A stretch of 64,000 nt of DNA from an uncultured Planctomycetota bacterium (lineage in GTDB: Bacteria; Planctomycetota; Planctomycetia; Gemmatales; Gemmataceae), in assembly GCA_963849325.1 (NCBI GenBank), contig CAWKHF010000012.1:928001-992000 (forward strand), in the 5' to 3' direction. The notes beneath the pieces are model-generated. The model was given only the letters and a program-made list of their open reading frames with translations, was not told where the DNA came from and ran no database searches. The position numbers were made by a program, and so were the translations under genes. Positions 1-49,765 of this stretch are shown here, piece by piece (the first letter of the stretch is position 1; the number at the start of each line of letters is the position of its first letter).

Positions 1-559
1 TTACGCCACTACGATCGCGGCCAGGACGTGGATCTGATCGACCTGGCGCGAGACGCAGTGGCCGAACTTTGAAGCCGGAGCGACGCTGGACGCGCTGGAG
101 CGCGCTCTGCAAAAGCGCGGGGTCTACACTTGTGCGTTGCGGATCGATCCGCGCGACCGCCTGCGCTGGCCCTATCCGGTCCTCATGCATCTCAAGGGTC
201 CGTCCGCGCTGGGGCATTACGTTGTCTGGCTGCCCTCGTCGGCAGAGGAAAGGGCGGAGGTCTGGGCAGGCCTGTCCGGGATTCAAGCGGGCGACGCCGA
301 CCATTTGGCGGGGCGGCGTTCGGGGGTGATCTTGCTGACCTCCTCGGAGCCGATTGCCCATCCGGAAGCAGCCGTGTACCGGCCTATGCGCGTGTGGCCC
401 TGGCTATTGGCCGCCGTCAGCTTTGCCCTCACGCTGGCGCTCTTCAAGCCAGGCGTTTATCGGCCGCTGCGGCAGTTGGCTCGAAGCATGATCGGGAAGG
501 ACGGAAAAAGCTGCGCTGACTCTGAGACTGTCAGCAACGCGCCGGTTCGAGTTTCCTAA
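1..559 (+). CDS. Peptidase C39-like domain protein with C-terminal TM helix (5' end outside window; apparent frameshift near 50)
   Basis: Joined frames read LRHYDRGQDVDLIDLAR/ETQWPNFEAGATLDALERALQKRG...WPYPVLMHLK...GHYVVW, which resembles the C39 'GxSL..L..a' and 'P.I.H....HYVV' motifs. Hydrophobic WPWLLAAVSFALTLALF near the C-terminus. The catalytic Cys would lie upstream of the window. Confidence 0.6.
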
Positions 560-579
560 CCATGAAAGGTGAGTGTCCG

Positions 580-1167
580 ATGAAGAGCCGAGTGCTGGTT
601 GCGTTCGTGGCGGCGATCAACGTGATCGCCCTGGCCCTGTTGCTCGATTCATTCGCCGGGAGGACGCCTTTGCCTCTCGTTGCGGCGGAAAAAAAGGTTG
701 TTCGGGGAGGGCAATGCTATGAGACCGTTACCAAAGCCTGTAAAAAGGTAAACACCCGCTGCGACAAGCAGGAGTGCAGTGAAACGAAGATTGTAGACCA
801 GACGTTTCACAGCTGCCCGGCCGGTTCAAACCAGGACAAAACCATCCCCGATAAGACGTTCCCAGGTTGCAAAAAGGTCAAGAAGGGGTCGGCAGACTGT
901 TATATAAACACCTATCCATGCATCAATCGCGGCCCTTGCGTAACGGTAGGTCTGAAACAATGCAAGAAGGTTGAGGTCAGGGATCCAAAGAATCCCAAGA
1001 AGCTTGAGACTAAATATTACTGCCAGTACCAGGGCCCAACAGAGGAGCTAAGCAACTTTGGCTTTTATGCCGGGGGCGATGCATGTGATGTCAGCCAGCT
1101 TGACCTTCCGGTCGATACGGCGGTCGCGCTTGCCAACGGGCTGGAATTCAAGGTTTTCCACTACTGA
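580..1167 (+). CDS. Secreted Cys/Lys-rich protein with double-glycine motif (alternative start 562)
   Basis: N-terminal hydrophobic signal, then LVAAEKKVVRGG, then a region with 12 Cys; lower GC than the neighbouring core genes. Confidence 0.75.
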   Translation: MKSRVLVAFVAAINVIALALLLDSFAGRTPLPLVAAEKKVVRGGQCYETVTKACKKVNTRCDKQECSETKIVDQTFHSCPAGSNQDKTIPDKTFPGCKKVKKGSADCYINTYPCINRGPCVTVGLKQCKKVEVRDPKNPKKLETKYYCQYQGPTEELSNFGFYAGGDACDVSQLDLPVDTAVALANGLEFKVFHY

Positions 1168-1287
1168 GAAAGTGTTCTTGGCGAGCGAAGTTGCGTTAGC
1201 GCCTCGATTGTTTCTCTCAAGGCGCTGACGCAACCCAACTCGCCGGAGTTTTTCTCCATACGGGACACCGCAACAGAGGCCGCAATC

Positions 1288-2439
1288 ATGAAGAATTTTC
1301 GCCTTACCTTTCTCTTCCTCTGTGCACTGCTCATGGCGATACCTTTCGCATCTGGCGGCAACGCGCCACCCAGCCCAGGAAAAGAGATATTCCCTTTTGT
1401 CTGGGCGGGACTCAAAGATAATCGCGAACGCTTGCGTCGAGGCGCCTTCCGCGTCAAGGGACGCAAGATCGATGATGATCCCAGGGGACGACGCCTCGAT
1501 AGCGACATGACCATTTTTTGCGCCTTCGATTATGATAAGGATCTGTTCCGCTTCGATCGTGCGGAACCCGAATTCTTCACGAAAGAGCCCCTCGTCGATC
1601 GCGGCCAAGGACCGAAAGCCCTTGAGGAGCAGGGCCGGAAAATGAGGAGCGACCCAAAGGATTGGGTCGAAAGGAATGTCGGCGGCAAGTGGGCGAAATC
1701 GGAAACCCAATGCATCAGCTGGAGCATACAGGGCAACTCGGTCAGCATCTTAAGACCACATGAGGAGCCGGACTCCTCCTTAAGGATCTTCGACGTTCGC
1801 ACGCTAGGATTGTTAATTTGGGGCAACTTGGTGGACAGGGGCACTTCCTGGAAGGACACCTGTGAACTGTATCCGGAACTTCCTTTGGAAGCCGTTCAGG
1901 AACGCAAGGGTCTGTACCGTTTTCGCTGGGTTGAGAATGCCTCAATTCCTCTCCGCAAAACCCTGTGGGTAGACGAGGCACAGGGATTTTCGCCTGTCCG
2001 GCTGCACACGCAGGAGGGCCAAACCAGCAAGGATGGCATCAAGTGGTCCGAGCCGGATATAACGAGCGAAGTCGAATCCGTTTGCATTGGTGGAGTATGG
2101 GTGCCACATACCTTCCGCATCGAGACTCGTGAGTCTGCACCGTGGTTCCGGAGTTACCAGTGGACTTTCGCGTGGGAATCCGTCAATGAACCAGTCGCCG
2201 AGTCGCTCTTCACCGTCGAGGGCATGGACTTACCCAAAGGCACACCGGTGATCGATTATCGTCTCGGCGAGCCGATCCTCAAGGGCCGCATCGGCGAGGA
2301 GCCTTCATCGACGGCCGGCCAAACACCTCTGCCCGGTTTCCTGCGTCGCTATGGGCTCTGGCTTGTGGTGCTCGGCGGCGTGGCGGTCGCCTGCATCCTG
2401 GTCTACTGGCGCGTTCGTTCCCCCAAGCCAACCTCCTAA
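1288..2439 (+). CDS. Exported hypothetical protein (LolA/sorting-like beta fold suspected) with C-terminal membrane anchor
   Basis: Signal peptide; ...LWVDEAQGFSPVR...GVWVP...SVNEPVAESLFTVEGMDLPKGTPVID motifs typical of planctomycete exported proteins; C-terminal TM followed by basic residues. Confidence 0.7.
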   Translation: MKNFRLTFLFLCALLMAIPFASGGNAPPSPGKEIFPFVWAGLKDNRERLRRGAFRVKGRKIDDDPRGRRLDSDMTIFCAFDYDKDLFRFDRAEPEFFTKEPLVDRGQGPKALEEQGRKMRSDPKDWVERNVGGKWAKSETQCISWSIQGNSVSILRPHEEPDSSLRIFDVRTLGLLIWGNLVDRGTSWKDTCELYPELPLEAVQERKGLYRFRWVENASIPLRKTLWVDEAQGFSPVRLHTQEGQTSKDGIKWSEPDITSEVESVCIGGVWVPHTFRIETRESAPWFRSYQWTFAWESVNEPVAESLFTVEGMDLPKGTPVIDYRLGEPILKGRIGEEPSSTAGQTPLPGFLRRYGLWLVVLGGVAVACILVYWRVRSPKPTS

Positions 2440-2473
2440 CGGGAGCCGCCGTAAGCGGCAGGCTCTTTCTATC

Positions 2474-3505
2474 ATGCTTATCCTCTTTCCGCGTACTGTC
2501 TGTCCGCATACCGGGGAGCCGAGTGACAAGGTCCGTCCACGCCATGCGTCGAGAAGCCAGCCAGGGTTTACTCTCGTGGAACTGCTGGTCGTTCTCGCCA
2601 TCATCGGGGCGCTCCTCGGCCTCTTGCTCCCCGCTGTCATGCGTGTCCGCGAAGCGGCGAGTCGGGCACGCTGCGCCAACAATATGAAGCAGCTCGCTCT
2701 GGCCGTCCATCTATATCATGACGACTTCCAGCGCTTGCCGCCCGGCGCGATCGGCCCCTATCAGCAGCCCGTCCCCGGCCAACTCTACTACGGTTGGGGA
2801 TCCTCCTCCTACGGATGGAGCTGGTTGTCCCGAATCCTTCCCTATGTTGAGCAAGCTCCCTTGTTTCAATTGGGAGGTATCCCGTCTACGACACTGGCCC
2901 AGAGCAACATTGCGGCCAGCCGCATCGTCCCCTTCCTCTGCCCCAGCGATACGGCCTACAACGCGCCTCCTCGTACCGATACGGGCAACCTGGAGGGCTT
3001 TCCGGTCGGCAACACCAACTACAAGGGGGTCAGCGGCTCCAACTGGGGCTACGACTCGTCCCAGAACGCCTGGTTCCCTACGCTGTGGCAGCACCAGGGT
3101 ACGAACGGCTCCTACGACGGACTGAGCCAGGGAGACGGAGCCATGTTCCGCATCGACATCTTCGTCCCCCGTGGACTGCTGGCCATCACCGACGGATCCT
3201 CCAATACCTTCTTGATCGGCGAGGACATTCCAGTCCTGAACAACTGGTGCTCCTGGCCTTACGCCACCCACGCTTACGGCACCTGCGCTATCCCTCCCAA
3301 TGCCGTGCAACCCAACGGTCAGCCCTTCGACCCCAACGAGTGGTACAACAATCACTCCTTCCGCAGTAGGCATCCTGGCGGCCTCCAGTTCGCTTTCGCC
3401 GACGGTTCGGTGCATTTCGTGTCCACCGCGATCAACCTCGATCTCTACCGCGCTCTGGCGACGATTCAGGGTGGAGAGGTCGTGGATGTGTCGCGGCTCG
3501 ATTGA
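2474..3505 (+). CDS. DUF1559 prepilin-type N-terminal cleavage/methylation protein
   Basis: GFTLVELLVVLAIIGALLGLLLPAV, REAASRARCANNMKQLALA, FLCPSD, ITDGSSNT and the H-X9-DG motif (HPGGLQFAFADGSV). Confidence 0.93.
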   Translation: MLILFPRTVCPHTGEPSDKVRPRHASRSQPGFTLVELLVVLAIIGALLGLLLPAVMRVREAASRARCANNMKQLALAVHLYHDDFQRLPPGAIGPYQQPVPGQLYYGWGSSSYGWSWLSRILPYVEQAPLFQLGGIPSTTLAQSNIAASRIVPFLCPSDTAYNAPPRTDTGNLEGFPVGNTNYKGVSGSNWGYDSSQNAWFPTLWQHQGTNGSYDGLSQGDGAMFRIDIFVPRGLLAITDGSSNTFLIGEDIPVLNNWCSWPYATHAYGTCAIPPNAVQPNGQPFDPNEWYNNHSFRSRHPGGLQFAFADGSVHFVSTAINLDLYRALATIQGGEVVDVSRLD

Positions 3506-3560
3506 CTGCTCTCCGCAACTTCCGCGTAATTTCGAGAAGGGATGTCGGAAGCGATTCGAT

Positions 3561-6143
3561 TCACGAACGCAGATCGCGCTTCCAGCGGCGCACGGCCGCC
3601 ACGACTTGCTCCGGCGTCGCCTGGCTCAAATCGAACTCGCGCAGTGCTTGCAGGACCGGATCTTCCATGTGGGCGAACAGGCTGCGCTGCACGACGCGCG
3701 GCTGACGGATGCGGCCGGGTCGATCCGGCGCGTGGACGTGATGCGCCTCCAGTTCGGCGAGCACTTCGCGGGCGCGGACCAGCACTTCCTCCGGCACGCC
3801 GGCGCTGGGCCACGTGAATGCCGTAGCTCTTGTCGGCGCTGCCCGCGGCGATCTGGTGCAAAAACACAATGCCGTCGGCCCCCTCATGGACGCGCACGTT
3901 GTAGTTGCGCAGTCCCGGCAGACGCTCGGCCAGCTGCGCCAGTTCGTGGTAGTGGGTGGCGAACAGGGTGCGGCAGCCAATGCGATCGTGCAGGTATTCG
4001 GTGAGGCCCCAGGCCAGCGAGACGCCGTCGTAGGTGCTGGTGCCGCGGCCGATCTCGTCGAGGATGACCAGGCTGCGCGGCGTGGCGTTGTTGAGGATGT
4101 TCGCCGCCTCCGTCATCTCCACCATGAACGTGCTCTGGGCGCGGCTCAATTCGTCGCTGGCGCCGACGCGCGTGAAGATGCGATCGACCAGTCCGATCGT
4201 CGCTCGTCGCGCCGGTACGAAACTGCCCAGCTGGGCCAGGAGCGCCAGCAAGGCCGTCTGCCGTAGATACACCGACTTCCCGCCCATGTTCGGTCCGGTA
4301 ACGAGCAAAAAGAAGCCGTCGTCCGGCCCCATGGTTACGCCGTTGGGCACGAACGTGCCCGCCGGCAGCGTTTGATCGAGGACGGGATGCCGGCCGTCCT
4401 CGATGCGCAAGATCGGTTCGTCGCTCAGTTCGGGCCGGCAGTAGTTGCGTTCGGCCGCCAGCTCCGCCAGGGAGGCCAGCACGTCGAGCGTGGCCAGCAC
4501 TTCCGCCGTCTGCATCAGCCGATTCGTCTGCGCCGCCACGCGCTCACGCAGCTGCGCGAACAGCTCGTATTCGCGTTCCTGCAGCCGTCCCTCGGCTTGC
4601 ATGACCTTCTCGGCCATGTCGGACAGATCGCCGGTGATGTAGCGATCGGCATTCTTGAGCGAACGGTGCAACCGATAGTAGGCCGGCACCTTGCTCTTGT
4701 GGGTGTGCGTCACCTCGATGTAATAGCCGTAGCCCTCGGTGAAGCCGACCTTGAGGCTGGTGATGCCGGTATCGCGGGCTTCCTTGGCCGCATAGTCGGC
4801 CATCCACTGCTTGCCGCCGGTTTTCAAATCGAACTGGCGGTCGAGTTCCTCGTCGTAGCCACGGCGGATGATGCCGCCCTCGCGCGGACTGATGGGCGGG
4901 TCGTCCACCAGGGCGGACTCCAGCGCCTCGCGCAGCTCGGGGCACACTTCCAGCCGCCCTTCCAGGTCGCGCAACAGGACCGACTCGCGGTCCTTCACCT
5001 GCGCCTTGATGCGCGGCAGGAGGGCGAGTGTCCGGTTGACCGCGGCCAGGTCGCGCGGCGAGGCCCGTCCCGTACACACCCGCGTCGTCAGCCGCTGCAA
5101 ATCGAGTACGTCCGCCAGGCTCTCGCGCAGCTCTCGGCGCGGCCCGTGTTCGCCCAGTAACTCCTCGACGGCGTCCAACCGGGCGCGGATGGCCGGACGC
5201 TCGGCCAGCGGGGCCAGCACCCAGTCCTGCAACAGACGCGCCCCCATCGGCGTCATGGTGCGGTCGAGCACGGCCAGAAGCGAGCCGGTGCGGGCATTGT
5301 CGCGCAGGGTCCGCGTCAATTCCAGACTGCGGCGCGTCACCTCGTCCAGATACAGGAAGCGCTGCTCGGAGTACGGCCGTAGGCGGCTCAGGTGGGCGAG
5401 GCTGGCCTTGAACGTTTCCTGAAGATACAGCAGCAACGCCCCGGCGGCGTTCAGGGCCGGCTGGTTGTCGTCGAAGCCAAAGCCGGCCAGGGTGCTGACC
5501 TCGAAGTGGCGGAACAGGGCGCCGCGCGCCGTCGGAGAATCGAAGGTCCAGTCCGGCCGGGGCGTGAGGATCAGCCGCGGCATCGCCTCGCGGACACGAT
5601 CCAGCAGTCGCTCCGTCTCGGCGGTGAGGGACTCGGCGCACAGGCACTCCGATGGGGCCAGGCGCAGCACCTCGTCGGCCAGGCGTTCGCGCGGCACGTC
5701 GGCCGCCTGGAACAATCCGGTGGACAACTCGACCCAGGCCAGGCCGGCCGGCGTTCGTCCGCCCGGCGGCGTCAGCGCGATCAGGTGATTGGCCCGTCGC
5801 GGATCGAGCAGGTCGTCCTCGGTGAGCGTGCCGGGCGTGACGACGCGGATGACCTCGCGGCGAACCGGCCGGCCTTTCACCTGCCGCGGGTCTTCCATCT
5901 GCTCGCAGATGGCGACGCGGTGGCCGGCTTGCAGCAGTTTACCCAAATAGCGATCGAGGGCGTGATATGGCACGCCCGCCATGGGGATTTCCTTGTCGCG
6001 GCGGGTCAGGGTGATGCCGAGCAGTCGAGAGCCGACCTCGGCGTCCTCCTCGAATAGCTCGTAAAAGTCGCCATTGCGGAACAGCACGATCGTACCGGGG
6101 TGGCGTCCTTGGCCTCCCGGTACTGCTGCATCATCGGAGTCAT
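3561..6143 (-). CDS. mutS: DNA mismatch repair protein MutS (frameshifts near 6105 and 3805, probably sequencing errors)
   Basis: MTPMMQQY start, FRNGDFYELF, Walker A TGPNMGGKS, STFMVEM, ILDEIGRGTST, FATHYHEL, SYGIHVA. Confidence 0.95.
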
Positions 6144-20254: not shown

Positions 20255-21458
20255 TCACGTCGTATACTCGGCGTTGAGGCGGATGTATTCCTGCGTCAGG
20301 TCGCAGGTCCAGAAGGTGCAGCGGCCGGGCCCGAGCGTGAAGCGCAGACGCAGGTGGACGTGACGCTCGCGCTTCAGGTAGGCCGAGGCGGTGGCGGCGT
20401 CGAACGGCTGCGGCGCGCCGGCATGATACAGCAGCAGGTCGCCCAGCCACAGCGACAGGTGCTCCTCCTCGAACTCCACGCCCGCGTAGCCCGCCGCCGA
20501 AACGATGCGGCCCCAGTTGGGGTCGGCGCCGTGGATGGCCGTCTTGACCAGGGCGCTGTCGGCGATGGTCTTGGCCACGCGGTACGCCTCGCGGTCGTCG
20601 CGCAGCCCCTCGACCTCGATGGTGATGAGGTGCGTCGCCCCCTCGGCGTCGGCGGCGATGGCCCGCGCCAGCTCGCCGCACACGTCCGTGACCGCCGCGC
20701 CGAACCGCGTCAAGGCCTCGCCGCGCACGGGAGCCTGTCCGGGCTGGCCGGCGCCGTTGGCCAACAGCAGCAGCGTGTCGTTGGTGCTGGTGTGGCCCTC
20801 GACGCTGACGCAGTTGAAGGTGTGGTCGGCCGTGCGGCGCGCCAGCGTGGCCAGGTCTTCCGCTGACACCGCGGCGTCACTGCAGACGAACGCCAGCATG
20901 GTCGCCATGTTCGGCCCGATCATGGCCGCCCCCTTGGCCACGCCCGTCAGACGGACCGTCGACGCCGTCCAGTTCGACCTCGCGCGTCGCCACCTTGATG
21001 CGCGTGTCGGTGGTCAGGATGGCGCGGGCCAGGCTGTCGAGGGCCAGCGGCGTGTCGGCCAGCAGCGGGACGGCGGCGCGGATGCCGGACTCGATCGGCG
21101 GCATGGGCAGGTGCCGGCCGATGACGCCGGTGGAGCAGACGAGCATCTGTTCGGGCCGGCAGCCGAGTGCCTCGGCGGCGACGGCGGTCATGGCGCGGGC
21201 GTCGTCCAGGCCCCGCCGGCCGGTGCAGGCGTTGGCGTTGCCCGAGCAGACGACGACGCCGCGCACCTCGGCGGACGGCAGCCGTTCCTGGCAGACGCGC
21301 ACCGGGGCGGCGCGTACGCGGTTCTGCGTGAACACGCCCGCCGCCGCGGCCGGGACGTCGCTGACGAGCAGGGCCAGGTCGCGGCGGTCCGGGTCGGGAC
21401 GGAGGCCGCAGTGCAGGCCGGCGTAGCGAAAACCCTTGGCGAGGTGCCAGATGGTCAT
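20255..21458 (-). CDS. argJ: Bifunctional ornithine acetyltransferase/N-acetylglutamate synthase (frameshift near 20950)
   Basis: GVFTQNRVRAAPV, SGNANACTG, STGVIG, ILTTDT, AKGAAMIGPNMATML, TSTNDT, DPNWGRI, WTCDLT. Confidence 0.95.
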
Positions 21459-21489
21459 GCCTTCGAGTTCCTCTGGAGGTAAACCGCCT

Positions 21490-23854
21490 CTATCGCATCA
21501 ACGCATAGAGTACGGCCGCCCGGCCCAGGCGGACAGCACTGTCGTAATCGTGACCCAGGCAGTCCGACGAGGTAGTGTGCTCCAGAGCGCAGCCGAGGTC
21601 GTATTTGCTGTAGATCACCACCCAGCGGCCGTTGTACTTGATGCCCTCCAGGGCCGGCGCCACCGCGCGATACTCCGGGTCCACGCCCTTGCCGTCCGCC
21701 TTCGGACGGCGGCAGCGCACCTGCTTGATCTCCTGGCCGTTCAGCTCCCGACCGAAGAGTTCGTCCGACGGCGGGATCGGCTCCAGCTTCAGCTTTTCCT
21801 CCGCCCATAGCGTTTCCATGAACTTGCGGAAGGAGGCGTCGAAAGCCGGCGAGCCGCAGCAAGCGTCGGCCAGCAGCAGGCCGCCCGACGTCAGGTTGAA
21901 GTGCAGGGGTTTCAGGTCCTTCGCCTTTTCCTCGAAGGCGCCGCGACCGTGCATGTACAGGAAGCGGTAACGGACCACATCTTCGCGCGACGGAAACACC
22001 TCGATCGGCTCCAGCACCACGTCGAGTCCGACCTTGCGCATCTCGCTCATGAGGTTGCGCATGGCCTTGGGGGCCGGCCGCCAGTCGCCGCCGGCGACCG
22101 GCGTGTAGTGGATCTGGCCCACCTTCAGGTAGCCGCGGCGCACACGCTGCCGTTTATCTTCGGGCGGGATCACGATCTCGGTCAGACGGGGCCGCGGCGG
22201 TTCCAGGCCGGTGGCATAGGCGATGATGTTGGCCGCCAACTGGAAGGCGGTTCGACCTTCCACGCTGCGGTCGAAATCGTTGGCCTCCCAGTAGTAAGCC
22301 AGCGGTCGCGGGCTGAAAATCACCACCCACTTGCAGCCGTGCTGGATACCGTACAGCGGGAACGGCCGATTCGGCGTCAGCAGGAACTTGCCCGACGCCG
22401 TCCAGATCGGATGATCGTCCGGCAGGGGCTTCAAATCGGCATCGGGGAAGATGCGGCCCATGAGTTTCTCGAAGTCTGCGTCGAAAGCCCTCCGCGCCGC
22501 AGCAAGCCTCGGCGAGCACGAAACCGCCGTTCTCCAGGTAGTCCTTGAGGATTTCCTCTTCGTTGCCGCGCGGGGCGTAGTCGTGGCCGTTGAAATAGAC
22601 GATGGGCGAGGGCAGCAGCTCGGCGGCCAGGCGGCGCCGCTCCGGCACCGCCTCGGCCCGGCCGCGCACGTCGAAGATTTGCCAGGCCAGCGGTTGACGC
22701 TTGAACAATTCGCGGCTGGCGAAATCGACCAAGTGGCGCACGTCGCTGTGTTTGTTGTTCCAGCCATCGTAGCCGCGCGGGCCGTAGGCCAGCTTGGTCA
22801 ACAGCACCGGCGTCCGCCCCTTGGCGAGGAACAGCAGCGCGAAGCTCGTCGCCACCACCGGCGTGCCGTCGAGGTTGCCCACGCCCTGCCAGGAGCCGTC
22901 GCCCCTCTGAACGCGAACCAGGTATTCGCAGCCGATCTCGTACCAGTCGTGGCCGCCGAAGAAGCGACGACCGGTCAGCCGGCCGGTGCGTTCCAGTCCG
23001 TACAGACAATAGAACTGGGCCGGGCCGAGCCGAGTCGCGGCGTTGTCCGCGCCGAGCCGCGCCGGGAAGTGGGCGCCGATCCAGCGCAGACCGTTGACGG
23101 CCGGGCCATCCTCGTCGTAGACGCCGCAGTCCTTGATGACGCCGCCCTCCATGTGCTGCTTGCCGACGTCCAGGTCCATGCCGGTAATCATCAAGTTGCA
23201 CAGTCCGGCGCTGGTCATGGTCATCGACGGCGGATTGCCGGCCTTGTACGCCCATCCGCCGATGCCTCCCCTGGCCTGTTCCGCCTTGGGGATCTGCGTG
23301 GCGATCATGAATTGGCGGATTTTGCCCAGCGCCTCCTTGTTCACCTTGACGCCGGATTCGATGCCGGCGTGCAGGCCGAGGACGGCGTACTGCGAGTTGG
23401 AGTTGTCCGTGGTGGTGTCCTCGCCATAACCCCAGCCGTTGGGCTTCTGGTGCTCGATCAGCCAGTTGACGTTTTGCTGAATGCGTTCGCGGTCGATGGC
23501 CTGGCCGGCCTGGCTGTAGGCCATCGTTTGCAGGGCGACCACATAGGTCTTGCTGAAGCGGCCGAGCTTGATGTCGCGCAGATACTTCAAGCCGTCCTGG
23601 ATGGCCGGATCGGTGGCCGGCACGCCGGCGGTGAGCAGGGCCAGCAGTGCCAGGCTGGTCGTGCCGCCGGGATAGGCGACGTGAACGGCGTCCGTCTCCC
23701 AGCTGCCATTGTTCCGCCGCTGGCCGAGCAGAAACTTCTTGCCGTCGTCGATGGACTTGCGCACTTTCTCGACCAGTGGGTCGTCGCCTCGGGCGGGGGC
23801 GGCCGCCGACATGAACAGAACCAGGACCATCGCCGACATCAACAGCCATCGCAT
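21490..23854 (-). CDS. Prenyltransferase/squalene-oxidase-repeat protein with two DUF4159 domains (frameshift near 22490)
   Basis: Signal peptide, GWGY..DNSNSQYAVLGL, YCLYGLERTG, QRGDGSW, then two GG.L.A.ACCG DUF4159 units. Confidence 0.8.
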
Positions 23855-25966: not shown

Positions 25967-27421
25967 TCAGCCGTTGGCAAGGAGTTCGGTCACCACGCGG
26001 CCGGACTGGCCGTCGAGCAGCGACTCCGCCCGGCCGCCCTGGACGAAGACCAGCCGCTCCGCGTCCAGGCCGAACAGGTGCAGCAGGGTAGCGTGATAGT
26101 CGTAGTGGTGGACAATGTCTTCGACGGCGCGATGGCCGAACTCGTCCGTCTGTCCGTACACGAAGCCCCGCTTCACGCCGCCGCCGGCCAGCCACATCGT
26201 AAACCCGTCGGTGTTGTGGTCGCGGCCGGGGAGGTAGCCGTCGCCGCGGAACTGCACGAACGGCAGCCGGCCCATCTCGCCGCCCCAGTGGACCAACGTC
26301 GTCTCCAGCAACCCGCGCTGCTTCAAGTCGGTCACCAGGGCCGCGGATGGCTTGTCCACCTGCCGGCATCGCTCCGGCAGATACCGATGGATGTGCTCGT
26401 GATGGTCCCAGCCGTTGGCCCAGACCTGCACGAAACGGACGCCGCGCTCGACCAGTCGTCGGGCGATCAGGCAGCGGGTGCCGAAGTTCCGCGTCACCGG
26501 GTCGTCGAGGCCATACAGCCGGCGCGTCGCTTCCGTCTCTCGCGACACGTCGAAGGCCTCCTTGGCGGCCGTCTGCATCCGCGCGGCCAGGCGATAGCTC
26601 TGGATGCGAGCCTCCAGGTCGGTCTCTCCCGGCGAGTGCTCCAGGTCGCGGCGGTTGAGTCCGTCGAGGTAGTCCAACTGCAATTGCTGCGGCCCGCCGC
26701 GCAGCAGCGCCGTCGGGTCGAGGTTGGAGATGCGCGGCTCGGTCGGCCGGGCCATCGTCCCTTGGTAGATCGACGGCAGCCAGCCGTTGGACCAGTTCTC
26801 CGCCCCATAGACCGGCAGACCGGTATCCGGCAGGGCGACATATGCCGGCAACTCCTGCGTCTCGGCGCCCAGGGCGTAGGTCAGCCAACTGCCCAGTGAC
26901 GGCCGACCGCCGCGGTTGCGCCCGAGCCGAACGCCCGCAGCCCGCCGCCGTGGTTGCGGATGCCGCGCGAGGTTCATCGAGCGGATGACCGTGAGGTCGT
27001 CCACGATCCGGGCGATGTGCGGCAGCAGGTCGGATACCTCGATGCCGGATTGGCCGCGCTTGGCAAACTTCGCGATTCCTTTCATCACGGTGGAGGTGGC
27101 GCCGCCGGCGTTGTCGTAATCGACCTTGAGCACGAGCGACTTGCCGTCGTACTTGTCCAGCGTCGGCTTGGGATCGAAGAGGTCGATGTGGCTGGGACCG
27201 CCTTCGATGAACAGCGAGATCATCGCCTTCGCCCGGGCCGGCCGCGGCGGCTGCTTCGGCTTCAGGTCGTAAGTGCGGCGGTCCAGGTCGGGCATGACCG
27301 GCGCGGCCAGCAACCTGTCTTCGTTGAGCAGCCAGGCGAGGGCCAGGCTGCCGATGCCCATGGCGCTGCCGGCCACGAAATGCCGGCGGCCGCACACCGC
27401 TCCACCAGACGACGGACGCAT
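25967..27421 (-). CDS. DUF1501 protein (start uncertain, 27421 or 27449)
   Basis: RRHF, GGPSHIDLFDPKP, RPSLGSWLTYALG, CLIARRLVERGVRFVQ, WDHH, WGGEMGRLP, GRDHN. Confidence 0.88.
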   Translation of the reverse strand: MRPSSGGAVCGRRHFVAGSAMGIGSLALAWLLNEDRLLAAPVMPDLDRRTYDLKPKQPPRPARAKAMISLFIEGGPSHIDLFDPKPTLDKYDGKSLVLKVDYDNAGGATSTVMKGIAKFAKRGQSGIEVSDLLPHIARIVDDLTVIRSMNLARHPQPRRRAAGVRLGRNRGGRPSLGSWLTYALGAETQELPAYVALPDTGLPVYGAENWSNGWLPSIYQGTMARPTEPRISNLDPTALLRGGPQQLQLDYLDGLNRRDLEHSPGETDLEARIQSYRLAARMQTAAKEAFDVSRETEATRRLYGLDDPVTRNFGTRCLIARRLVERGVRFVQVWANGWDHHEHIHRYLPERCRQVDKPSAALVTDLKQRGLLETTLVHWGGEMGRLPFVQFRGDGYLPGRDHNTDGFTMWLAGGGVKRGFVYGQTDEFGHRAVEDIVHHYDYHATLLHLFGLDAERLVFVQGGRAESLLDGQSGRVVTELLANG

Positions 27422-27459
27422 ACGCTGCCTTCCTCTCTCCTTCGGACATATGAGGTCGC

Positions 27460-30116
27460 TCAACGCACGTAGAGAAAACGGTTCGAGGCCATCAGTGCCT
27501 GGCAATAGGTCGCCAGCGCCGCCCGGGCCGGGTCCGCGAGCGTCGGCGGGCTGGTCGGCTGGGCCGACCCCCGCCGGGGCCGGCGGGCCGGCTCGGCCGG
27601 CGGCGCCGAGGCCAATTCCTTCACCCGCGCCCGCAGCAGCTCCGTCTGCCGGGCCAGGTACGCGGCGGCCGACTCGACCTCGACTTCGTTCGCCTCGACG
27701 CCGAAGGCGAGACGCCACGCCAACCGCACCTGCCGGATCGGATCATCGCCGGCCTCGGCCCGGACCCGATCCGCAAACGCTTCCGCCGTGCGCAGCGCGA
27801 AGGGGCTGTTCAGCAGCAGCAGCGCCTGCGGCGTAACCGTGGAGACCATGCGGACCTCGCAATTGGGCGCCATCATCGGAGCGTCGAACGCCTCCAACTC
27901 CGGGCTCAACGCCGTCCGGCGCGCCGCCAGATACACGCTACGCCGACAGGCCAGGGTCGGGACCCGAGTCCTCCGCCCGGCCTGATCGGTGCTTTCCGAA
28001 GCGACCGGCACGGGCGGCCCGAACGGGCTGGGGTCCAGCTTGCCGGAGACAGCCACCATCGCGTCGCGCACAGCCTCGGCCTCCAAGCGGCGGACGGAGA
28101 AGCGAGCCAGGAGGCGGTTGTCCGGATCGACGGTGTCCAGCCGCGACCGCCGGGCCGACGACTGCCGGTAAGCGGTCGAGCAGACGATCAGTCGGTGCAT
28201 CGCCTTCAGACTCCACCCTCGGGCCGGCAGCTCGCTCGCCAACCAGTCGAGCAGGGCCGGATGGCTGGGCCGATCGCCGAGCCGGCCGAAGTCCGCCAGG
28301 GTAGTCACGATGCCGCGGCCGAAGTGCAGCGCCCAGACCCGGTTCATGAGCACGCGGGCCAACAGCGGATGCCGGCCGTCGGTCAGGTGGCGGGCAAAGG
28401 CCAGCCGCCGTCCGGTGGTCGGCACGTTCGGGTCTTTCTCCGGAATGTCCGTCTCGACCACGCCGCCCAGGACCAGGAGGTCGCCGGGCGGCACCGCCTG
28501 CTTGGGCTGCTCGTGATCGCCGCGGTGCAACAGCCGAGTGACCGGGACTTTACCCGGAACCTCGGTCAATACCCGGACGAACTCCTCTCGCGGCTTGGAG
28601 GCCAGGATCGCCTTGATCCGAGCATCGTATGCCTCCAGCCGCTTTTGACCTTCCAGGATCCCCGGCAGACGTTGGAAAAGTCCCAGGTTGGAGGCGTTCA
28701 CCCGATTTCAGGTTCGGGTAACGGTCGAGGACTCGTGCTTGCTCCGCCGTTCGTCGGGACGGGGCAGATTCATCGCCGCGGCGACAAGGGGACGATCGCT
28801 CTCCGGGAGTCGTTGAATCAGCACGGCCTTGATCTTGGCGATCTGCTCGCGGACGAGTTGGTCACGGGCGCGCTTCTCGGCGGCCGCCTCGCGGTCGATC
28901 GTCTCGACCTTTCGGCGATGGGCCTCTCCGGCCAGCGAGATCCGTCGCTGGTCCGGCGTGCGCCAGTTCTGCCAGTCCAGGGCCGGCTCAAAGACGGCGC
29001 GGAGGCGATGGTAGTCTACGTGGCTGATCGGGTCGTAGCGGTGGTCGTGGCAGCGGGCGCACTGCACGGTCAGACCCAGCAGGGACGTGGACACCACCTG
29101 GAGCGTGTCGGCGATCACCTGGTTGCGCACCGCCGGGGTGTTCTCCTGACCGGTGCCGTCCGGCACCATCCGCAAGAAGCCGGTCGCGGCCAGCTTGTCG
29201 AGGTCGGCGGCGGAGAGGTCCTGGTACGGCGGCCGCACCATCTCGTCGCCGGCCAGTTGCTCCTGGAGGAACTGGTCCAGCGGCTTATCGGCGTTGAAGG
29301 AGCGAATCACGTAATCGCGGTAACGGTAGGCGTCCGCGCGGGGTGGGTCGCGCTCGCTGTGTCCCTCGGAGTCGGCGTAGCCGGCGACGTCCAGCCAGTG
29401 GCGGCCCCAGCGCTCGCCGTAGTGCGGGCGACGCCAACAATTCGTCCACCAGCCGCTCGTAGGCGTCCGGGGCTGTGTCGGCGACGAAAGCGGTCCACCG
29501 CCTCGGGTGTCGGCGGCAGGCCGAGCAGGTCGAAAGAGAGCCGGCGGATCAGGGTCGCCCTGTCGGACTCGGGAGAAAAGGTGAGTCCTTTCTCTTCCAA
29601 CGCCGCCAGCAGGAAGGCGTCGATGGGCGTGCGGACTTTCGCGGCCTCCTTCACGGCGGGCAGAGGGGGCCGTCGGATCGGGCGGAACGCCCACCAGGTG
29701 CGTTCCTCCTCGGTGAAGTACGGCTCCGCCCCGAGGGATGTCGGCTCCGGGCGCACCGTCGGCGCACCGTCGGCGACCCAGCGGCGCAGCAGCTCGACCT
29801 CCCGCGGGGTAGGCCGCTTCTTCATCTCCGGTGGCGGCATTTCCTGATCGGCGATGCGCCGCAGCAGCAGGCTTTCCTCCGGCTTGCCGAGCGCGACCGC
29901 CGGCCCGGAGCGGCCGCCGGCAACGAGGGTGCGGCGCAGGCGCAGGTCGAGCTTGCCCTTGGGCTTTCCCTCCTCGCCGTGGCAGTGGAAGCAGTGCGTC
30001 TTGAGGATGGGCCGGACGTCGCGCTCGTAGGTCACCCTAGGCTCTGCCCCGGCGGCGAGGCCCGGGAGGAACGCGGCAACGGCGGGAATGAGGACGCGGC
30101 GAAATCGGTCCAGCAT
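27460..30116 (-). CDS. PSD1/planctomycete cytochrome c protein (DUF1549+DUF1553; frameshifts near 29480, 29430 and 28705)
   Basis: CFHCHG heme motif, WAFRP, YGERWGRHWLDVAGYADS, CARCHDH, NRVWALHFGRGIV, PSHPALLDWLA, TPQALLLLN. Confidence 0.88.
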
Positions 30117-30784: not shown

Positions 30785-31798
30785 ATGTCCACCACTCTAC
30801 CACTGTTCGTCGGACTGGACTACTCCCAACACGCCGTCCAACTGTGCGTCTTGGACCCCACGGGTCAGGTCTTGTGTAACCGCGCCGTGCCTGACTCCGC
30901 CGACGCCATCGATCAGGCCGTCCGGCGATTCGGTGCCGTCCGCGGCGTCGCCCTGGAAGCCTGCACCGGAGCCGCCAACCTCGCCGAGGAACTCGCCGAC
31001 CGCTTCGCCTGGCCCGTCCACCTCGCCCACCCCGGCTTCGTCTCCCGCATGAAGCAGTCGCCCGACAAAACCGACTTCTCCGACGCCCGCGTCCTGGCCG
31101 ACCTCGAACGGGTCGGCTACCTGCCCCGCGTCTGGATCGCCCCCAAGCAGCTCCGCGAGTTGCGTACCCTGGTCCGCGACCGCCAGCAGTTGGCCGCCCA
31201 GCGACGCAACCTCAAACTTCAGATCGGTGCCCTGCTACGGGAACACCGCCTACGCTGTAGCCACAACCGCTGGACGCGGGCCTGGCACGCCTGGCTGGAG
31301 CATCAAGCTCAACTGCCCGAACAAGCACGCTGGGTCATGCAACAACGCCTGCGTCGGCTGGCCTGGATCGTCCAGGAGATCCGCACCGTCGAAGAACGTC
31401 TCGAACAAGTCACCGCTGTGGACGGCACCGTAACTTGGCTGCGGACGATCAAGGGCATTGGTCCGGTCACCGCCTGGACGTTGCGGGCCGAGATCGGTCG
31501 CTTCGACCGTTTCCGCACCGGCAAGCAGTTGGCGCGGTACTGCGGCCTGACGCCGTGCAACCGCTCCTCGGGCGTGCGTGAGGCCGACGCCGGTTTGATC
31601 CGGGCGGCCAATCCCGAACTGCGTCGCGTGCTCATCGAGGCGGCCTGGCTGTTGGCTCGTCTGCAGCCGCGTTGGCGGCAACTGGCCGAGCGTCTGAAGG
31701 CACGGGGCAAACCGAGTACGGTGGTGATAGCGGCCGTGGCCAACCGCTTCGTGCGTTGGTTGTACCACGAAGGAGTCCGCCAACAGGCGGCGGCCTGA
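30785..31798 (+). CDS. IS110-family DEDD recombinase/transposase (intact, 337 aa)
   Basis: FVGLDYS, VALEAC and KTDFSDA (D-E-D-D); TIKGIG; YCGLTP..RSSG with the catalytic-type Ser; LRRVLIEAA. Confidence 0.95.
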   Translation: MSTTLPLFVGLDYSQHAVQLCVLDPTGQVLCNRAVPDSADAIDQAVRRFGAVRGVALEACTGAANLAEELADRFAWPVHLAHPGFVSRMKQSPDKTDFSDARVLADLERVGYLPRVWIAPKQLRELRTLVRDRQQLAAQRRNLKLQIGALLREHRLRCSHNRWTRAWHAWLEHQAQLPEQARWVMQQRLRRLAWIVQEIRTVEERLEQVTAVDGTVTWLRTIKGIGPVTAWTLRAEIGRFDRFRTGKQLARYCGLTPCNRSSGVREADAGLIRAANPELRRVLIEAAWLLARLQPRWRQLAERLKARGKPSTVVIAAVANRFVRWLYHEGVRQQAAA

Positions 31799-33287: not shown

Positions 33288-35060
33288 TCAACGGCGGAAC
33301 GTCCGCCTCACCTGCAAGGTAGGAGGGACGGGCTGGGGAGCGAGTCGCGGCGCTTCCCGGATCGTCGTTTTCTCTTCCCACAACCGCGGCGGCCCAGGTT
33401 CAGCGCGTCCGTCCGTCAGTTCCACGCGCAGTCTTGCCTCGCCGACTTTCTTCGCCTCCACCTCGACCGTGTACGTCGTCTCCTGCCCCGCGTCCAGCGC
33501 CGGCAGAGGATCGAAGCGGATGGTCTGTCCATCCCTCTGGGCCGTGGTCGGACCGCGCTGGCCGAGCACGGCCATTTCCTCGGGGACCGTGATGACGAGG
33601 GTAGGGCGGAGGAAGGCCGTCCGATCGGGGTTGAGGAGACGGAGCGTGTAAACGGCCCTCTGGCCCACGTCGAGCGGATCGCCGCTCTTGTCGATCTCGA
33701 CCGTGGGGCCGGAGGCAGACTCGAAGCGCGTCTCGACGAGAGCGTGGGCGGACAGATCGTGCTCGGCCTTAACGCGGGCCATGTTGCCGAAGCGTCCGGG
33801 ACGCGGAGCGCGGAGGACCACTTGCAGCACACGCCGCTCGCCTGGCGGCAAGCTGCCCAGCGACCAGCGCACGTGGCCACCCTCGACCCGGCCACCCGCG
33901 CCTGGCGCTGAGGAATTCGATCCCGGACGGCAGTTCGTCGGACACCTGCACGCCGTTGGCCGGCATCGTTCCGGGATTGCTGACGGTGATCTGGTACGCC
34001 GCCGGTCGATGGACCAGCCGTCGCTGCGGCCCGGTCTTGAGGAGGGACAACTTCGCTTCGCCAACGGTGATGCTGGCACTGGCCTTCTGGCGCACGCCGC
34101 CGGCGGCGGTTACTTCCGCCTTGTCGTGGAACGTGCCGATCTGCTTCGAGATGGCCTGGTATTCGATGCGCCGCGTCTGCCCAGCAGCCAGGTCGCCCAG
34201 CTTCCAGGTCAACGGCGCCTCCGGCTTGGGATCGGGACTGCCCTTGACGACGCCGATGAACTCCAGACCCTTCGGCAGTTCGTCGGTCAAGACGACGTCG
34301 CGGGCCAGGGACGGCCCCGTGTTCGTGACTTCGAGGCGGAAGGTGATCGACTCGTGCAGCAGCGCCTGTGCCGGCGCGGTGACGCGCAGGCGGACGCCAG
34401 GACGGGCGATGCGCGTCTTGACCGTCTGCCCGTGCTCGAACTGGACGTAGGCGCTGTTCTGGACCTCGTCGGTCCCGGCGGGGTTGATGTCCAGCACGAT
34501 CTCCTTCCGCTCGCCCGGCTTCAACGTACCGAGTTCCCAGAGCAGGTCGGTCGCGCCGGCCTTGGTCGGTGTCTTCTGCTCCGGCTTCGGCTCGGCGCGG
34601 ACGAAGCGGGTGCCGGCGGGCAGACGGTCGCGGACCAGGACGTGATGCGCCGCGGCCCGCGAGACGTTCTCGATCGTGAGTCGATATTCGATGTCCTTGT
34701 CGGGCTGGATTTGCGCGGGGCGCGGACGCGCAGACGGACGATCGGCACGGGCGGGTCCATCGGCTGCGGCCCGAGCGGCATCCCCGGAAAGGGGACCGTC
34801 TCATCCGGCGTCACGGGCGTGGGCGGTGGGGCCGTGAAGGGCGGCGTGGGCGAATCGGGTGGCGTGGGAGGCATGGGCGCTTCGGCGAGCGGTGGCTCGC
34901 CCGGCACGGCCGCCGGCGCCATCCACGGCTGCGCGACGGAGCACTCAGGGATCGGCCACGATACGGCCTGACCACGGCTGACGAGAAGGACCGGCGCCAG
35001 CAACAGTCCGAGAAGCATCGCCAGTCCCGCCATCCGTGCGGAGGGTTGCCATCCGTTCAT
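33288..35060 (-). CDS. DUF11 repeat-containing secreted protein (frameshifts near 34710, 34525 and 33900)
   Basis: Signal peptide, Pro-rich region, repeated (Y/F).(I/L).V.N.G...A.dV.(L/V).D.LP.G..F and W.LG.L..GE units. Confidence 0.8.
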
Positions 35061-35376: not shown

Positions 35377-36692
35377 ATGCACCCCCCGCTTCCTCCTCCG
35401 CACCGCGACCCGGATCACCCCGGCGAATCGTTCGCCCTCGACGCTCGGGACGACAAGGAACTGGAGTCCGGTCCCCTGGCCATCGTCGGCGGCTGCGGCC
35501 ACGTCGGCCTGCCGCTGGCCCTGGCCTTCGCCGCGCAAGGGCTACTCGGTCGATCTGCTCGACACTTCCGCCGAGCGCGTGGCCCTGGTCAACAGCGGCC
35601 GCATGCCGTTCCACGAGGACGACGCCGAGCCGCTGCTGGCCGAGTCCATCCGCAACGGCCGCATCAAGGCGACGACCGACTCCGCCGTCCTCGAAGACGC
35701 CGCCGCCATCATCGTCACCATCGGCACGCCGGTCGATGAATACCTCGATCCCGTCCGTCGGCGAGTTCGATCGCGCCCTGACGCGAGCTGCTGCACCAGG
35801 TCCGGCCCGGCCAGCTGCTCGTCCTGCGCAGCACCGTCTTCCCCGGCATGACCGATCGCCTGGCCCGCCAACTCGAACAGCTCGGCCGCTCCGACGTGGA
35901 TCTGGCCTACTGTCCCGAGCGCATCGTGCAGGGCAAATCGCTGATCGAGCTGGAGCAGTTGCCGCAGCTGGTCGCCGGCGCCACGCCGCGCGCGGCCCGC
36001 CGGGCCGCGGCCCTGTTCCGCATCATCTGCCCCAAGGTGCTGTTTCTGCGGCCCGTCGAGGCGGAGTTGGCCAAGCTGTTCTGCAACGCCTGGCGCTACA
36101 TCAACTTCGCCATCGCCAACCAGTTCTACGTCATGGCCCAGCACTTCGAGGCCGACTTCCACACCATCTACCACGCCCTGCGCGAGGACTATCCGCGCAT
36201 GCAGTCGCTGGCCCGGCCCGGGCTTCGCCGCCGGCCCTTGTCTGCTCAAGGACACCATGCAGCTGGGCGCCTTCAATCACGGCTCGTTCGTCCTCGGCCA
36301 GGCGGCCATGATGATTAACGAAGGGCTGCCCTATCTCGTCGTGCAGGACATCAAGCGCGCCTACCCGCTGGCGGAGATGACCGTCGGCATCCTCGGCATG
36401 GCGTTCAAGCCGGACAGCGACGATCCGCGTTCGTCGCTGTCGTACAAGCTGCGCAAGGTGCTGCTGCTGGAGTGCAAGCGCGTCCTCTGCACCGATCCCT
36501 ACGTCCCCGATCCCGGAGCTGACGCCGCTGGCCGAAGTGCTCGATCAGGCCGACCTGCTCATCGTCGGCACGCCGCACGACTGCTACCGCGACCTGACGT
36601 GCCGCCAGCCGATCCTCGACATCACCGGCACGATCCAGAAAGCGGTCGGCGATCGGCCATCCGCGATCAACCAACGAGCGGAGTTGGCATGA
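35377..36692 (+). CDS. Nucleotide-sugar dehydrogenase (UDP-ManNAc/GlcNAc dehydrogenase family; several frameshifts)
   Basis: IVGGCGHVGLPLA, IGTPVD, LRSTV.PG, YCPERIVQG, AELAKLFCN, GPCL.KD, GILGMAFK; TGA overlaps the next ATG. Confidence 0.85.
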
Positions 36693-48322: not shown

Positions 48323-49735
48323 ATGCCGCTGTCACGCTGCTTCCTGCCCGTGGCGATCCTGTTGTTCGCGCCACTGTCGTTGTGTCGGGCGGACGCGCCG
48401 CCGAACCTCGTCTGGATCGTCGGCGAGGACATGGGACCGGAACTCGGCTGTTACGGCGACGCCGACGCCATTACGCCGAACATGGACCGCCTGGCCTCTC
48501 AGGGGGCGCGCTTCACACGTTGTTTCACGCACGCGCCGGTCTGCGCTCCCAGCCGTTCCGGACTCATCACCGGCCGCTATCCCACCAGCATCGGCACGCA
48601 CCACATGCGTTCGCGGCTGCTCAAGCCGCCGCCGCTGTTCACCGATTACCTGAAAAAAGCCGGCTATACCATCGCCTGGCCGACGAGGACGGCCCACGGC
48701 AAGACCGACTTCAACTTCGCGCTGCCGCCCAAAGCCTTCGACGTCACGACGGAGTGGACCAAGGACATCCCGAAGCAGCCGTTCTTCGGCTTCTACAACA
48801 TCCTCACCAGTCACGAGAGCCAGATTCGTGCTCCGGCGGCGCAATTCGCCAGGAACACCGAGCGCCTCAAGCCGTCGGAGCGCCGCGACCCGGCGAAGAT
48901 GAAACTGCCGGCCTACTATCCCGACACGCCGGAGGTGCGCCGCGATCTGGCCAATTATTACGAGCTGGTCACGGCCGTCGATTACCAGGTCGGCGTCGTC
49001 CTCGACGCCCTGGAGAAAGCCGGCCTCGCCGACAACACCGTCGTTCTCTTGACCGGCGATCACGGCCGCGGTCTGCCGCGCAGCAAGCGCTGGGTTTACA
49101 ACCAGGGTACCCACGTCCCGTTGATCGTCCGCTGGCCCAACCACGTCAAGCCCGGCAGCGTGCGCGACGACCTCGTGTGCTTCCTCGATTTCGCTCCAAC
49201 CATGCTGGCGCTGGCCGGGGCGGACATTCCTAAGGAGATGCAAGGGCAAGTCATCCTTGGACCCAGGACGGCGCCCGAGCGCAAATACGTCTTCGCCGCC
49301 CGCGATCGCATGGACGAGACCCCCGACCGCATCCGCGGCGTGCGGGACAAACATTTCCAGTACGTCCGCAATTTCCATCCCGAGTTGCCCTATGCGCAGC
49401 GCGTCGCCTATGGGGAATTGATGCCGACCATGAAGGTCTGGCGCAAGCTCAACGCCGAGGGCAAGCTGAACGATGTGCAGAAGCAGTTCTTCGCGCCGAC
49501 CAAGCCGCGTGAGGAACTCTACGACGTGGACGCCGACCCCGACGAGGTCCACAATCTGGCCGGCGACCCGAAATACAAGGCGAAACTCGACGAGCTGCGC
49601 GCCGCCCTCGATCGCTGGCTGACCGAGACGAACGACCTCGGCGCCATCCCCGAACGCGAACTGATCGAGAAGGGTCTGGTGGCCGACAGTCTATCGCAGT
49701 ACGAGAAGCGGAAGGACAAAAGCCCTCCCAAATAA
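48323..49735 (+). CDS. Sulfatase (formylglycine-dependent)
   Basis: PNLVWIVGED, CAPSRSGLITGRY, GDHG, signal peptide. Confidence 0.92.
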   Translation: MPLSRCFLPVAILLFAPLSLCRADAPPNLVWIVGEDMGPELGCYGDADAITPNMDRLASQGARFTRCFTHAPVCAPSRSGLITGRYPTSIGTHHMRSRLLKPPPLFTDYLKKAGYTIAWPTRTAHGKTDFNFALPPKAFDVTTEWTKDIPKQPFFGFYNILTSHESQIRAPAAQFARNTERLKPSERRDPAKMKLPAYYPDTPEVRRDLANYYELVTAVDYQVGVVLDALEKAGLADNTVVLLTGDHGRGLPRSKRWVYNQGTHVPLIVRWPNHVKPGSVRDDLVCFLDFAPTMLALAGADIPKEMQGQVILGPRTAPERKYVFAARDRMDETPDRIRGVRDKHFQYVRNFHPELPYAQRVAYGELMPTMKVWRKLNAEGKLNDVQKQFFAPTKPREELYDVDADPDEVHNLAGDPKYKAKLDELRAALDRWLTETNDLGAIPERELIEKGLVADSLSQYEKRKDKSPPK

Positions 49736-49765
49736 CGATTGATCCGATCTTGTGAGGAAGCGACC

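Follow-up and report, generated by a model that had tools for sequence, protein, structure and literature searches.

The question raised by this locus is whether two adjacent genes, one for a stand-alone C39-like cysteine peptidase and the other for a cysteine-rich protein with a double-glycine stretch, encode an enzyme and its substrate. Both lie on the forward strand at the very start of a stretch of 64,000 nucleotides (nt), here called the window, from an uncultured member of the Planctomycetota (family Gemmataceae; assembly GCA_963849325.1, contig CAWKHF010000012.1, positions 928,001 to 992,000). Nearly all understanding of C39 peptidases concerns cytoplasmic domains of the exporters of bacteriocins and of peptides that are ribosomally synthesized and then modified post-translationally (RiPPs). 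The reading of the two genes as enzyme and substrate is plausible but unproven, with chances a little below even, and rests on one adjacency together with the conservation of motifs.

The first gene (1-559) is present only by its 3' part. It is read in frame 1 as far as ~nt 45 and, from nt 47 onwards, in frame 2, which is free of stops from base 38 until the TAA at 557-559, a run of 173 residues. The motif GHYVVW (212-229) lies within the match to the Pfam family Peptidase_C39 (PF03412) and is of the G-H-aromatic-V-V type of that family. Its His (codon 215-217) is presumed, from the description of the C39 family, to be the catalytic residue. The motif is invariant between the window copy and its closest relative, P0005, where its counterparts are G124, H125, Y126, V127 and W129. 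A C-terminal membrane helix (VWPWLLAAVSFALTLALF, 392-445) follows, with a Kyte-Doolittle hydropathy (KD) of 1.68 taken over 19 residues, and behind it a Lys/Arg-rich tail that extends to base 556. This tail has 38 residues and is then closed by the stop, therefore the gene holds no ATP-binding cassette (ABC) transporter domain. The initial annotation had described precisely such an arrangement, a C39-like gene with a C-terminal transmembrane segment and no ABC domain, and the sequence bears it out.

The family assignment comes in part from the fragment and in part from P0005. The Pfam match of the fragment is weak (16.6 bits, E 0.007, residues 13-64 against profile positions 43-92 of 133) and below the cut-off of 22 bits, because the start of the window cuts the domain. 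P0005, with 219 amino acids (aa), came from a word-index search; its identity is 42% across 84% of the query (E 1.2e-25) and 43% in the aligned pair. It lies above the cut-off with 26.1 bits over profile positions 13-130 of 133, contains a Cys, which would be the catalytic one, within ...VACGPRC... where the Pfam match begins (residue 45 against profile position 13), and also carries a C-terminal helix (KD 2.95). In the Atlas, the cluster nearest to P0005 comprises 85 members, proteins of 221 aa of which 99% carry PF03412, and is commonest in Planctomycetota; the score to this cluster is 0.92, with 168 of 256 features in common. The gene in the window may fairly be described as that of a stand-alone, membrane-anchored C39-like peptidase.

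Further relatives of the peptidase were few. The word-index search with P0002 gave P0005 alone, and with P0005 it gave P0005 itself. A sequence search of the PDB with the peptidase alignment (A1) gave no match at E<=1, and with P0005 it gave rows at chance level, E 0.29 or worse. A profile scan of genome contigs with the same alignment returned 118 pattern stretches, of which tblastn confirmed 0. Finally, tblastn of P0005 and of the cysteine-rich gene call (P0004) against plasmids gave no match.

The second gene (580-1167) encodes the Cys-rich protein, of 195 aa. The open reading frame (ORF) is open from an alternative in-frame ATG at 562 to the TGA at 1165-1167, which would give 201 aa. ATG 580 is the better start because the database gene call P0004 (195 aa) begins there, because both homologues begin at the aligned residue (MKRR and MKRQ) and because a putative Shine-Dalgarno-like element (AAGGTGAG, 566-573), read from the sequence, stands 6 nt before it. 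The two genes are on the same strand, with a gap of 20 nt from ATG 580 and of 2 nt from ATG 562. The spacing of 2 nt that had been given for the pair is exact for ATG 562 and becomes 20 nt with the preferred start. The ORF is judged to be a real gene and no chance ORF, because homologues match it with E 1.1e-24 and 1.1e-4 and the spacing of its Cys is conserved.

The product begins with MKSR, followed by a hydrophobic segment of 19-20 residues and then by SFAGRTPLPLVAAEKKVVRGG, with the double glycine at residues 43-44. The hydrophobic segment (592-648, residues 5-23 of P0004, KD 2.61) contains the invariant pattern NVI.LA..L.DS and would be a Sec signal or a signal anchor. The double-glycine-type leader stretch (658-711) adjoins this membrane segment; it includes LVAAEKKVVRGG at nt 676-711 and the GG codons at 706-711, and the predicted cut would fall between 711 and 712. 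The predicted mature domain (712-1164) has 151 aa and Gln as first residue, and contains the 12 Cys of the protein in conserved spacing (12 of 12 stand after the GG) and most of its 22 Lys. These are the elements that the initial annotation had listed, a signal peptide, LVAAEKKVVRGG and a Lys-rich region with 12 Cys, and they are as it described them. A lipoprotein was considered and rejected, as the protein has no lipobox and Gln or other residues stand before the first Cys.

Relatives of the Cys-rich protein were searched in an exhaustive HMMER pass over 1.84 billion representative proteins. Beyond the window's own protein only two were identified: P0006 (188 aa, 42% identical to the window protein, E 1.1e-24) and P0007 (168 aa, 33% identical, E 1.1e-4). 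The word-index search with P0003 gave the window's own protein only, Pfam and NCBIfam contain no family that matches any of P0004, P0006 and P0007, nor did the Atlas yield a usable match for the Cys-rich protein. The profile scan of genome contigs with the alignment of this family (A2) gave 66 pattern stretches, of which tblastn confirmed 0. As a separate observation, P0004 (window 1120-1164, forward strand) and P0006 both end in the conserved ...AVA.ANGL.F..F.Y with a terminal aromatic residue, an ending that resembles the C-terminal signal of outer-membrane proteins. P0007 departs from the others before this ending, and its gene call may be shortened by a frame error.

The three-way alignment of P0004, P0006 and P0007 was used for the conservation of single columns. 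In the hydrophobic segment N14, V15, I16, L18, A19, L21, D23 and S24 are invariant in all three members. Behind it the invariant residues are P30, L33, E37, K38, G43, G44 and Q45, which correspond to P-15, L-12, E-8, K-7, G-2, G-1 and Q+1 when counted from the predicted cut, and the first Cys is invariant as well. The spacing of the Cys is nearly identical in the three: C-x7-C-x6-8-C-x4-C-x9-12-C-x16-17-C-x9-11-C-x6-C-x5-C-x6-7-C-x12-19-C, with a twelfth Cys 20 residues beyond the eleventh in two of the three. Identity is highest in residues 1-26 (50-62%), intermediate in residues 27-44 (33-39%) and lowest in the mature part (13-24% without the shared Cys). Net charge is not conserved: Lys plus Arg against Asp plus Glu amount to 22/18, 11/8 and 4/16, so that the terms 'cationic' and 'Lys-rich' of the initial annotation apply to the window member only.

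This distribution, in which the best conserved part stands before the GG, fits a recognized leader or anchor and is unusual for a plain Sec signal. The conservation of the hydrophobic segment suggests more than a Sec signal; the segment could stay in place as an anchor or serve as an additional recognition element. An invariant Q+1 would be expected if a new N-terminus forms at that residue. Conservation of the GG had been set beforehand by the initial annotation as one of the tests on which its proposal could fail; the GG is invariant in all three proteins, and so are P-15, L-12, E-8, K-7 and Q+1.

PMC10885120 and PMC5557850 describe C39 peptidases as cutting after the GG of leaders, and PMC10885120 gives hydrophobic residues at positions -4, -7 and -12 of double-glycine leaders. 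In the Cys-rich family GG stands at -2/-1 (G43, G44) in 3 of 3 members and Leu at -12 in 3 of 3, while -4 is V, I or T and thus hydrophobic in 2 of 3. E-8 is likewise in register with leader consensus sequences. Leaders of this type stand at the extreme N-terminus of a cytoplasmic precursor and have no Sec signal; here the hydrophobic segment of 19-20 residues (KD 2.1-2.6) comes first in all three members. The GG stretch of the Cys-rich protein therefore matches double-glycine leaders only in part.

The probable topology of both proteins was derived from the charges around their hydrophobic helices. The peptidase has 2 Lys or Arg in the 15 residues before its C-terminal helix and 4-5 in the 15 residues after it, in both members; the window copy has 4 there. 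By the positive-inside rule, this bias behind the helix would therefore place the catalytic domain outside, and an N-terminal export signal would therefore be needed. The Cys-rich members carry MK(S/R)(R/Q) before the hydrophobic helix, which would leave the N-terminus inside and set the leader and the Cys-rich domain outside. The 12 Cys in conserved spacing also point to an oxidizing compartment.

From the observed gene order, motifs, conservation and family assignment we infer a topology, a cleavage and a pairing as follows. The two genes would form a module in which the peptidase gene comes first and the gene for its substrate second. The peptidase would be a small C39-family enzyme anchored in the cytoplasmic membrane by its C-terminal helix, with the catalytic domain towards the periplasm. 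The substrate would be made as a pre-protein whose conserved hydrophobic segment inserts via Sec with the N-terminus inside, so that the next ~18 residues, on the outer face, would serve as a double-glycine-type leader (P-15, L-12, E-8, K-7 and GG). Both proteins would then be tethered at the outer face of one membrane, with the GG ~18 residues from the helix of the substrate. A cut by the peptidase after the GG would free a domain of 151 aa, with six probable disulfides, from its membrane tether. The freed domain would begin with an N-terminal Gln, which could cyclize to pyroglutamate, and might act as a toxin, as a signal or in a structural role. Such a route, where a GG leader stands behind a conserved signal-anchor helix and a periplasm-facing, anchored C39 peptidase frees a disulfide-bonded cargo at GG|Q, would be an undescribed one and is put forward tentatively, with more doubt than confidence. 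Within it the anchor may offer a second point of recognition, through contact between the two helices in the membrane. In the literature searched, which covers few subscription journals, no combination of a hydrophobic export segment, a GG leader and a stand-alone anchored C39 peptidase was found described.

Several observations weigh against the pairing and the proposed route. Position -7 is Lys in all three Cys-rich proteins and hydrophobic in characterized leaders, and the NCBIfam leader models gave no match to the Cys-rich proteins. The catalytic Cys of the window peptidase would lie upstream of base 1 of the window. At the site expected for the third catalytic residue (an Asp or Asn ~16 residues past the His), inspection by eye of the window copy and of P0005 gave the stretch (L/V)WAGLSG in both, from which a conserved Asp/Asn is absent. 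The N-terminal export-signal candidate of P0005 is weak (best 9-residue KD 1.3), which makes the periplasmic location insecure. The AlphaFold2 models of the peptidase (predicted local distance difference test, pLDDT, 42.6 from a 2-row alignment) and of the Cys-rich protein (pLDDT 35.0 from a 3-row alignment) are too poor for use. The peptidase reading frame is also broken near 46-51, which the initial annotation had overlooked and which is treated below. In addition, the adjacency of the two genes is a single genomic instance. The proposal of the initial annotation, that a Sec-exported precursor is matured at the GG, keeps in its favor the conserved GG, the best conserved part before it and a topology that would set both partners on the same side; Lys at -7 and the single genome stand on the other side.

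Base composition also differs between the two genes. The G+C content at third codon positions (GC3) is 0.76 in the peptidase gene, 0.64 in the Cys-rich gene and 0.66 in the ORF of 383 aa that follows it, against 0.75-0.88 in most neighbors. Overall G+C drops from ~0.66 to ~0.50 across 600-1200 and remains at or below 0.58 until ~2250, with flanks of 0.62-0.73. The low-G+C stretch of 600-2250, which includes the Cys-rich gene and the 383-aa ORF, may have a separate origin and may have been inserted later beside the peptidase gene, another point that counts against the pairing. A repeat search of 1-3600 gave short, chance-like matches only and no repeats flanking the lower-G+C stretch, and a promoter and terminator scan of the same region gave nothing between the two genes and nothing above the shuffled expectation. 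The similar rarity of the two families and the ~42% identity of each window protein to its nearest relative would fit joint inheritance without demonstrating it.

A first alternative, which appears somewhat unlikely, is that the genes are mere neighbors: the Cys-rich protein would be exported by Sec and cut by signal peptidase I, for instance after SFA, the conserved ...EK....GGQ..C would be the start of a folded mature domain, and the peptidase would have another substrate. The A-x-A-like S-F-A that stands behind the hydrophobic segment in two of the three members, with SFA|G as a possible ordinary signal-peptidase site, speaks for it, and so do the difference in GC3 between the two genes, the fall of G+C across 600-1200, the Lys at -7 and the single adjacency. 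The family sizes favor it too. The nearest C39 cluster has 85 members and the Cys-rich family 3, so that most of these peptidases cannot have this partner and the peptidases would therefore have, at most, variable partners. However, a segment of 19-20 residues with 50-62% identity, against 13-24% in the mature part, would be out of the ordinary for a Sec signal that is cut off, GG, E-8 and L-12 occupy the positions at which a C39 substrate is expected to have them, and the genes are separated by a same-strand gap of only 2 or 20 nt. Another alternative, an improbable one, is that the Cys-rich protein is never cleaved and its hydrophobic segment is a permanent signal anchor that tethers a disulfide-rich domain in the periplasm or at the surface, with the GGQ stretch as a flexible linker. 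In length the segment corresponds to a membrane helix (KD 2.1-2.6 over 19 residues), no other part of the protein is as conserved, and the low-confidence AlphaFold2 model draws residues 3-26 as one helix. A linker is nevertheless unlikely to hold P-15, L-12, E-8, K-7, GG and Q+1 invariant among proteins of 29-42% identity, and the gene immediately upstream encodes a peptidase from a GG-specific family.

The last alternative concerns the state of the peptidase gene, which could be a decayed pseudogene in this genome, with the module inactive here; this is considered very unlikely. A one-base frame break lies at approximately 46-51, where the colinear match to P0005 moves from frame 1 to frame 2. 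Bases 1-45 in frame 1 (LRHYDRGQDVDLIDL...) correspond to residues 54-68 of P0005 (window residues 1-18 against P0005 54-70 in the alignment; E 0.003 in this single comparison), and nt 47-481 in frame 2 match P0005 69-212 colinearly with E 1.9e-30. The break is flanked by stops in both frames (35-37 in frame 2 and 67-69 in frame 1), and the protein collection has no gene call of its own for the peptidase ORF in the range of 95-303 aa, as would suit a pseudogene. Beyond the break, however, the ORF is colinear with P0005 through to the tail behind the helix, and core genes of the window are broken in the same way. The mutS gene (~3561-6143, reverse strand) is broken twice. One break falls on a run of C near 6096-6104 and puts its start MTPMMQQYREAKDA (ATG 6143) out of frame with ...HPGTIVLFRNGDFYELF, and near 3800-3805 its end ...AGVPEEVLVRAREVLAELE (ORF 3561-3980) is out of frame with ...KSYGIHVAQ. 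The argJ gene (reverse strand) is found in two frames that split exactly at Pfam profile position 147 (20880-21497 for positions 2-147 and 20258-21013 for 147-377). The gene of a UDP-glucose/GDP-mannose dehydrogenase (ugd, forward strand) is split into 35378-35848 (profile 22-90) and 35782-36315 (profile 107-181), and its central domain is shortened as well (profile 2-57 of 94). Unbroken genes of the window include those for DUF1501, a CLC channel and one sulfatase.

Three core genes thus carry four breaks between them in 64 kb. This pattern indicates assembly indels, and such an error is more likely than decay to account for the frame break of the peptidase gene. The breaks in mutS may alternatively reflect a truly inactivated mismatch-repair gene in a mutator lineage. 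Whichever the cause, the frame break of the peptidase gene is weak evidence for a dead gene. Together the breaks suggest an assembly in which single-base indels are frequent, so that apparent pseudogenes in this window call for caution.

Among known systems, the closest to the proposed pair is FapD, from the Fap functional-amyloid operon of Pseudomonas, described in PMC5557850 as a Sec-exported C39 homologue with activity in the periplasm. There it functions when supplied with the signal of OmpA, and secretion of FapC is abolished in the C38A mutant. According to the same paper, the substrate of FapD and its cleavage site are unidentified, the Fap proteins carry no canonical leader, and the authors consider the periplasmic class of C39 peptidases uncharacterized and possibly directed to another recognition sequence (PMC5557850). 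The initial remark that no described pathway with this layout could be named was thus too strong, as FapD is a described, Sec-exported and stand-alone periplasmic C39 peptidase. FapD and the window peptidase are alike in being stand-alone C39-family proteins with no ABC transporter, in acting outside the cytoplasm (which is predicted for the window peptidase) and in being encoded beside Sec-exported candidate substrates. They differ in that the neighbor in the window carries a leader-like L-12/E-8/GG stretch and the window peptidase a C-terminal membrane helix. Pfam scans of the ORFs downstream gave no amyloid or FapF-type gene, and the literature search for newer work on FapD gave unrelated papers only.

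The peptidase-containing ABC transporters (PCAT), also known under the name AMS (ABC transporter for maturation and secretion) and represented by ComA, LahT, PCAT1 and CvaB, share with the window system the C39 domain and a GG leader with set positions (here Leu at -12, Glu at -8 and a mostly hydrophobic -4). In them, by contrast, the C39 domain is fused to an ABC transporter of six helices and a nucleotide-binding domain, a fusion that the window gene does not have. They act in the cytoplasm on a short leader at the extreme N-terminus, whereas the candidate leader of the window stands behind a hydrophobic export segment. The window protein also differs by its Lys at -7, by a proposed processing outside the cytoplasm and by a cargo of 151 aa with 12 Cys instead of a short peptide. 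A more distant comparison is that of LapG and LapA. LapG is of another peptidase family and has a di-alanine cleavage site, LapA, a giant type-1-secreted adhesin, sits in an outer-membrane pore, and cyclic di-GMP (c-di-GMP) controls the system through LapD; none of these features was seen in the window system. The likeness is a mechanistic analogy only, namely the release of a tethered protein by a periplasmic cysteine protease that cuts it near the N-terminus (PMC3032545; bioRxiv 10.1101/198937).

The surroundings of the pair comprise genes of diverse function. The 383-aa ORF (1288-2439, forward strand), as low in G+C as the Cys-rich gene, has a signal-like stretch (MKNFRLTFLFLCALLMAIPFASG) at its N-terminus and, at the C-terminal end, a hydrophobic helix behind which stands RVRSPKPTS. 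It is matched by no Pfam or NCBIfam family, and the PDB search gave one chance-level row. It could be a further member of the module, for instance a receptor, a chaperone or an immunity protein. It is followed by a DUF1559/H-X9-DG pseudopilin-like gene (2351-3505, forward strand; identified with Pfam and NCBIfam), whose probable start is near 2474 rather than 2351 because the N-methylation motif begins at residue 68. The mutS gene is on the opposite strand and convergent with these two genes. Further along the window are a PSD1 (DUF1553) and DUF1501 pair (25970-28707, reverse strand), an IS110-family transposase (DEDD_Tnp_IS110 and Transposase_20; 30785-31798, forward strand), two sulfatases (48323-51523, forward strand), a DUF11 repeat protein and PilM. 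The pieces of the DUF11 repeat protein (33291-34800, reverse strand) are in two overlapping frames with a weak match to Chlam_OMP6, a cysteine-rich outer membrane protein, and may represent a further frame break. The DUF1559 gene, the PSD1-DUF1501 pair and the sulfatases are typical of Planctomycetota, and the initial guess of a planctomycete agrees with this mix of genes. The 26 ORFs scanned, in a window that opens inside the peptidase gene and covers its downstream side only, include no ABC domain or exporter, no Dsb-type gene and no amyloid gene; the window has no other copies related to the peptidase or the Cys-rich gene, and Rfam identified no RNA family in the whole window.

If the two genes are mere neighbors, what remains is an orphan family of Cys-rich exported proteins and a routine uncharacterized peptidase. 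If they are partners, a natural pair of an anchored C39 peptidase and a Sec-inserted GG protein would make the periplasmic class of C39 peptidases directly testable, and would provide the first defined substrate motif for that class, studied so far in FapD only. Double-glycine processing would then be combinable with Sec export and with periplasmic disulfide formation. The pair would also point to a small and very rare planctomycete family of secreted proteins with 12 Cys, and the planctomycete C39 proteins of ~220 aa would be release enzymes for a variable neighboring cargo.

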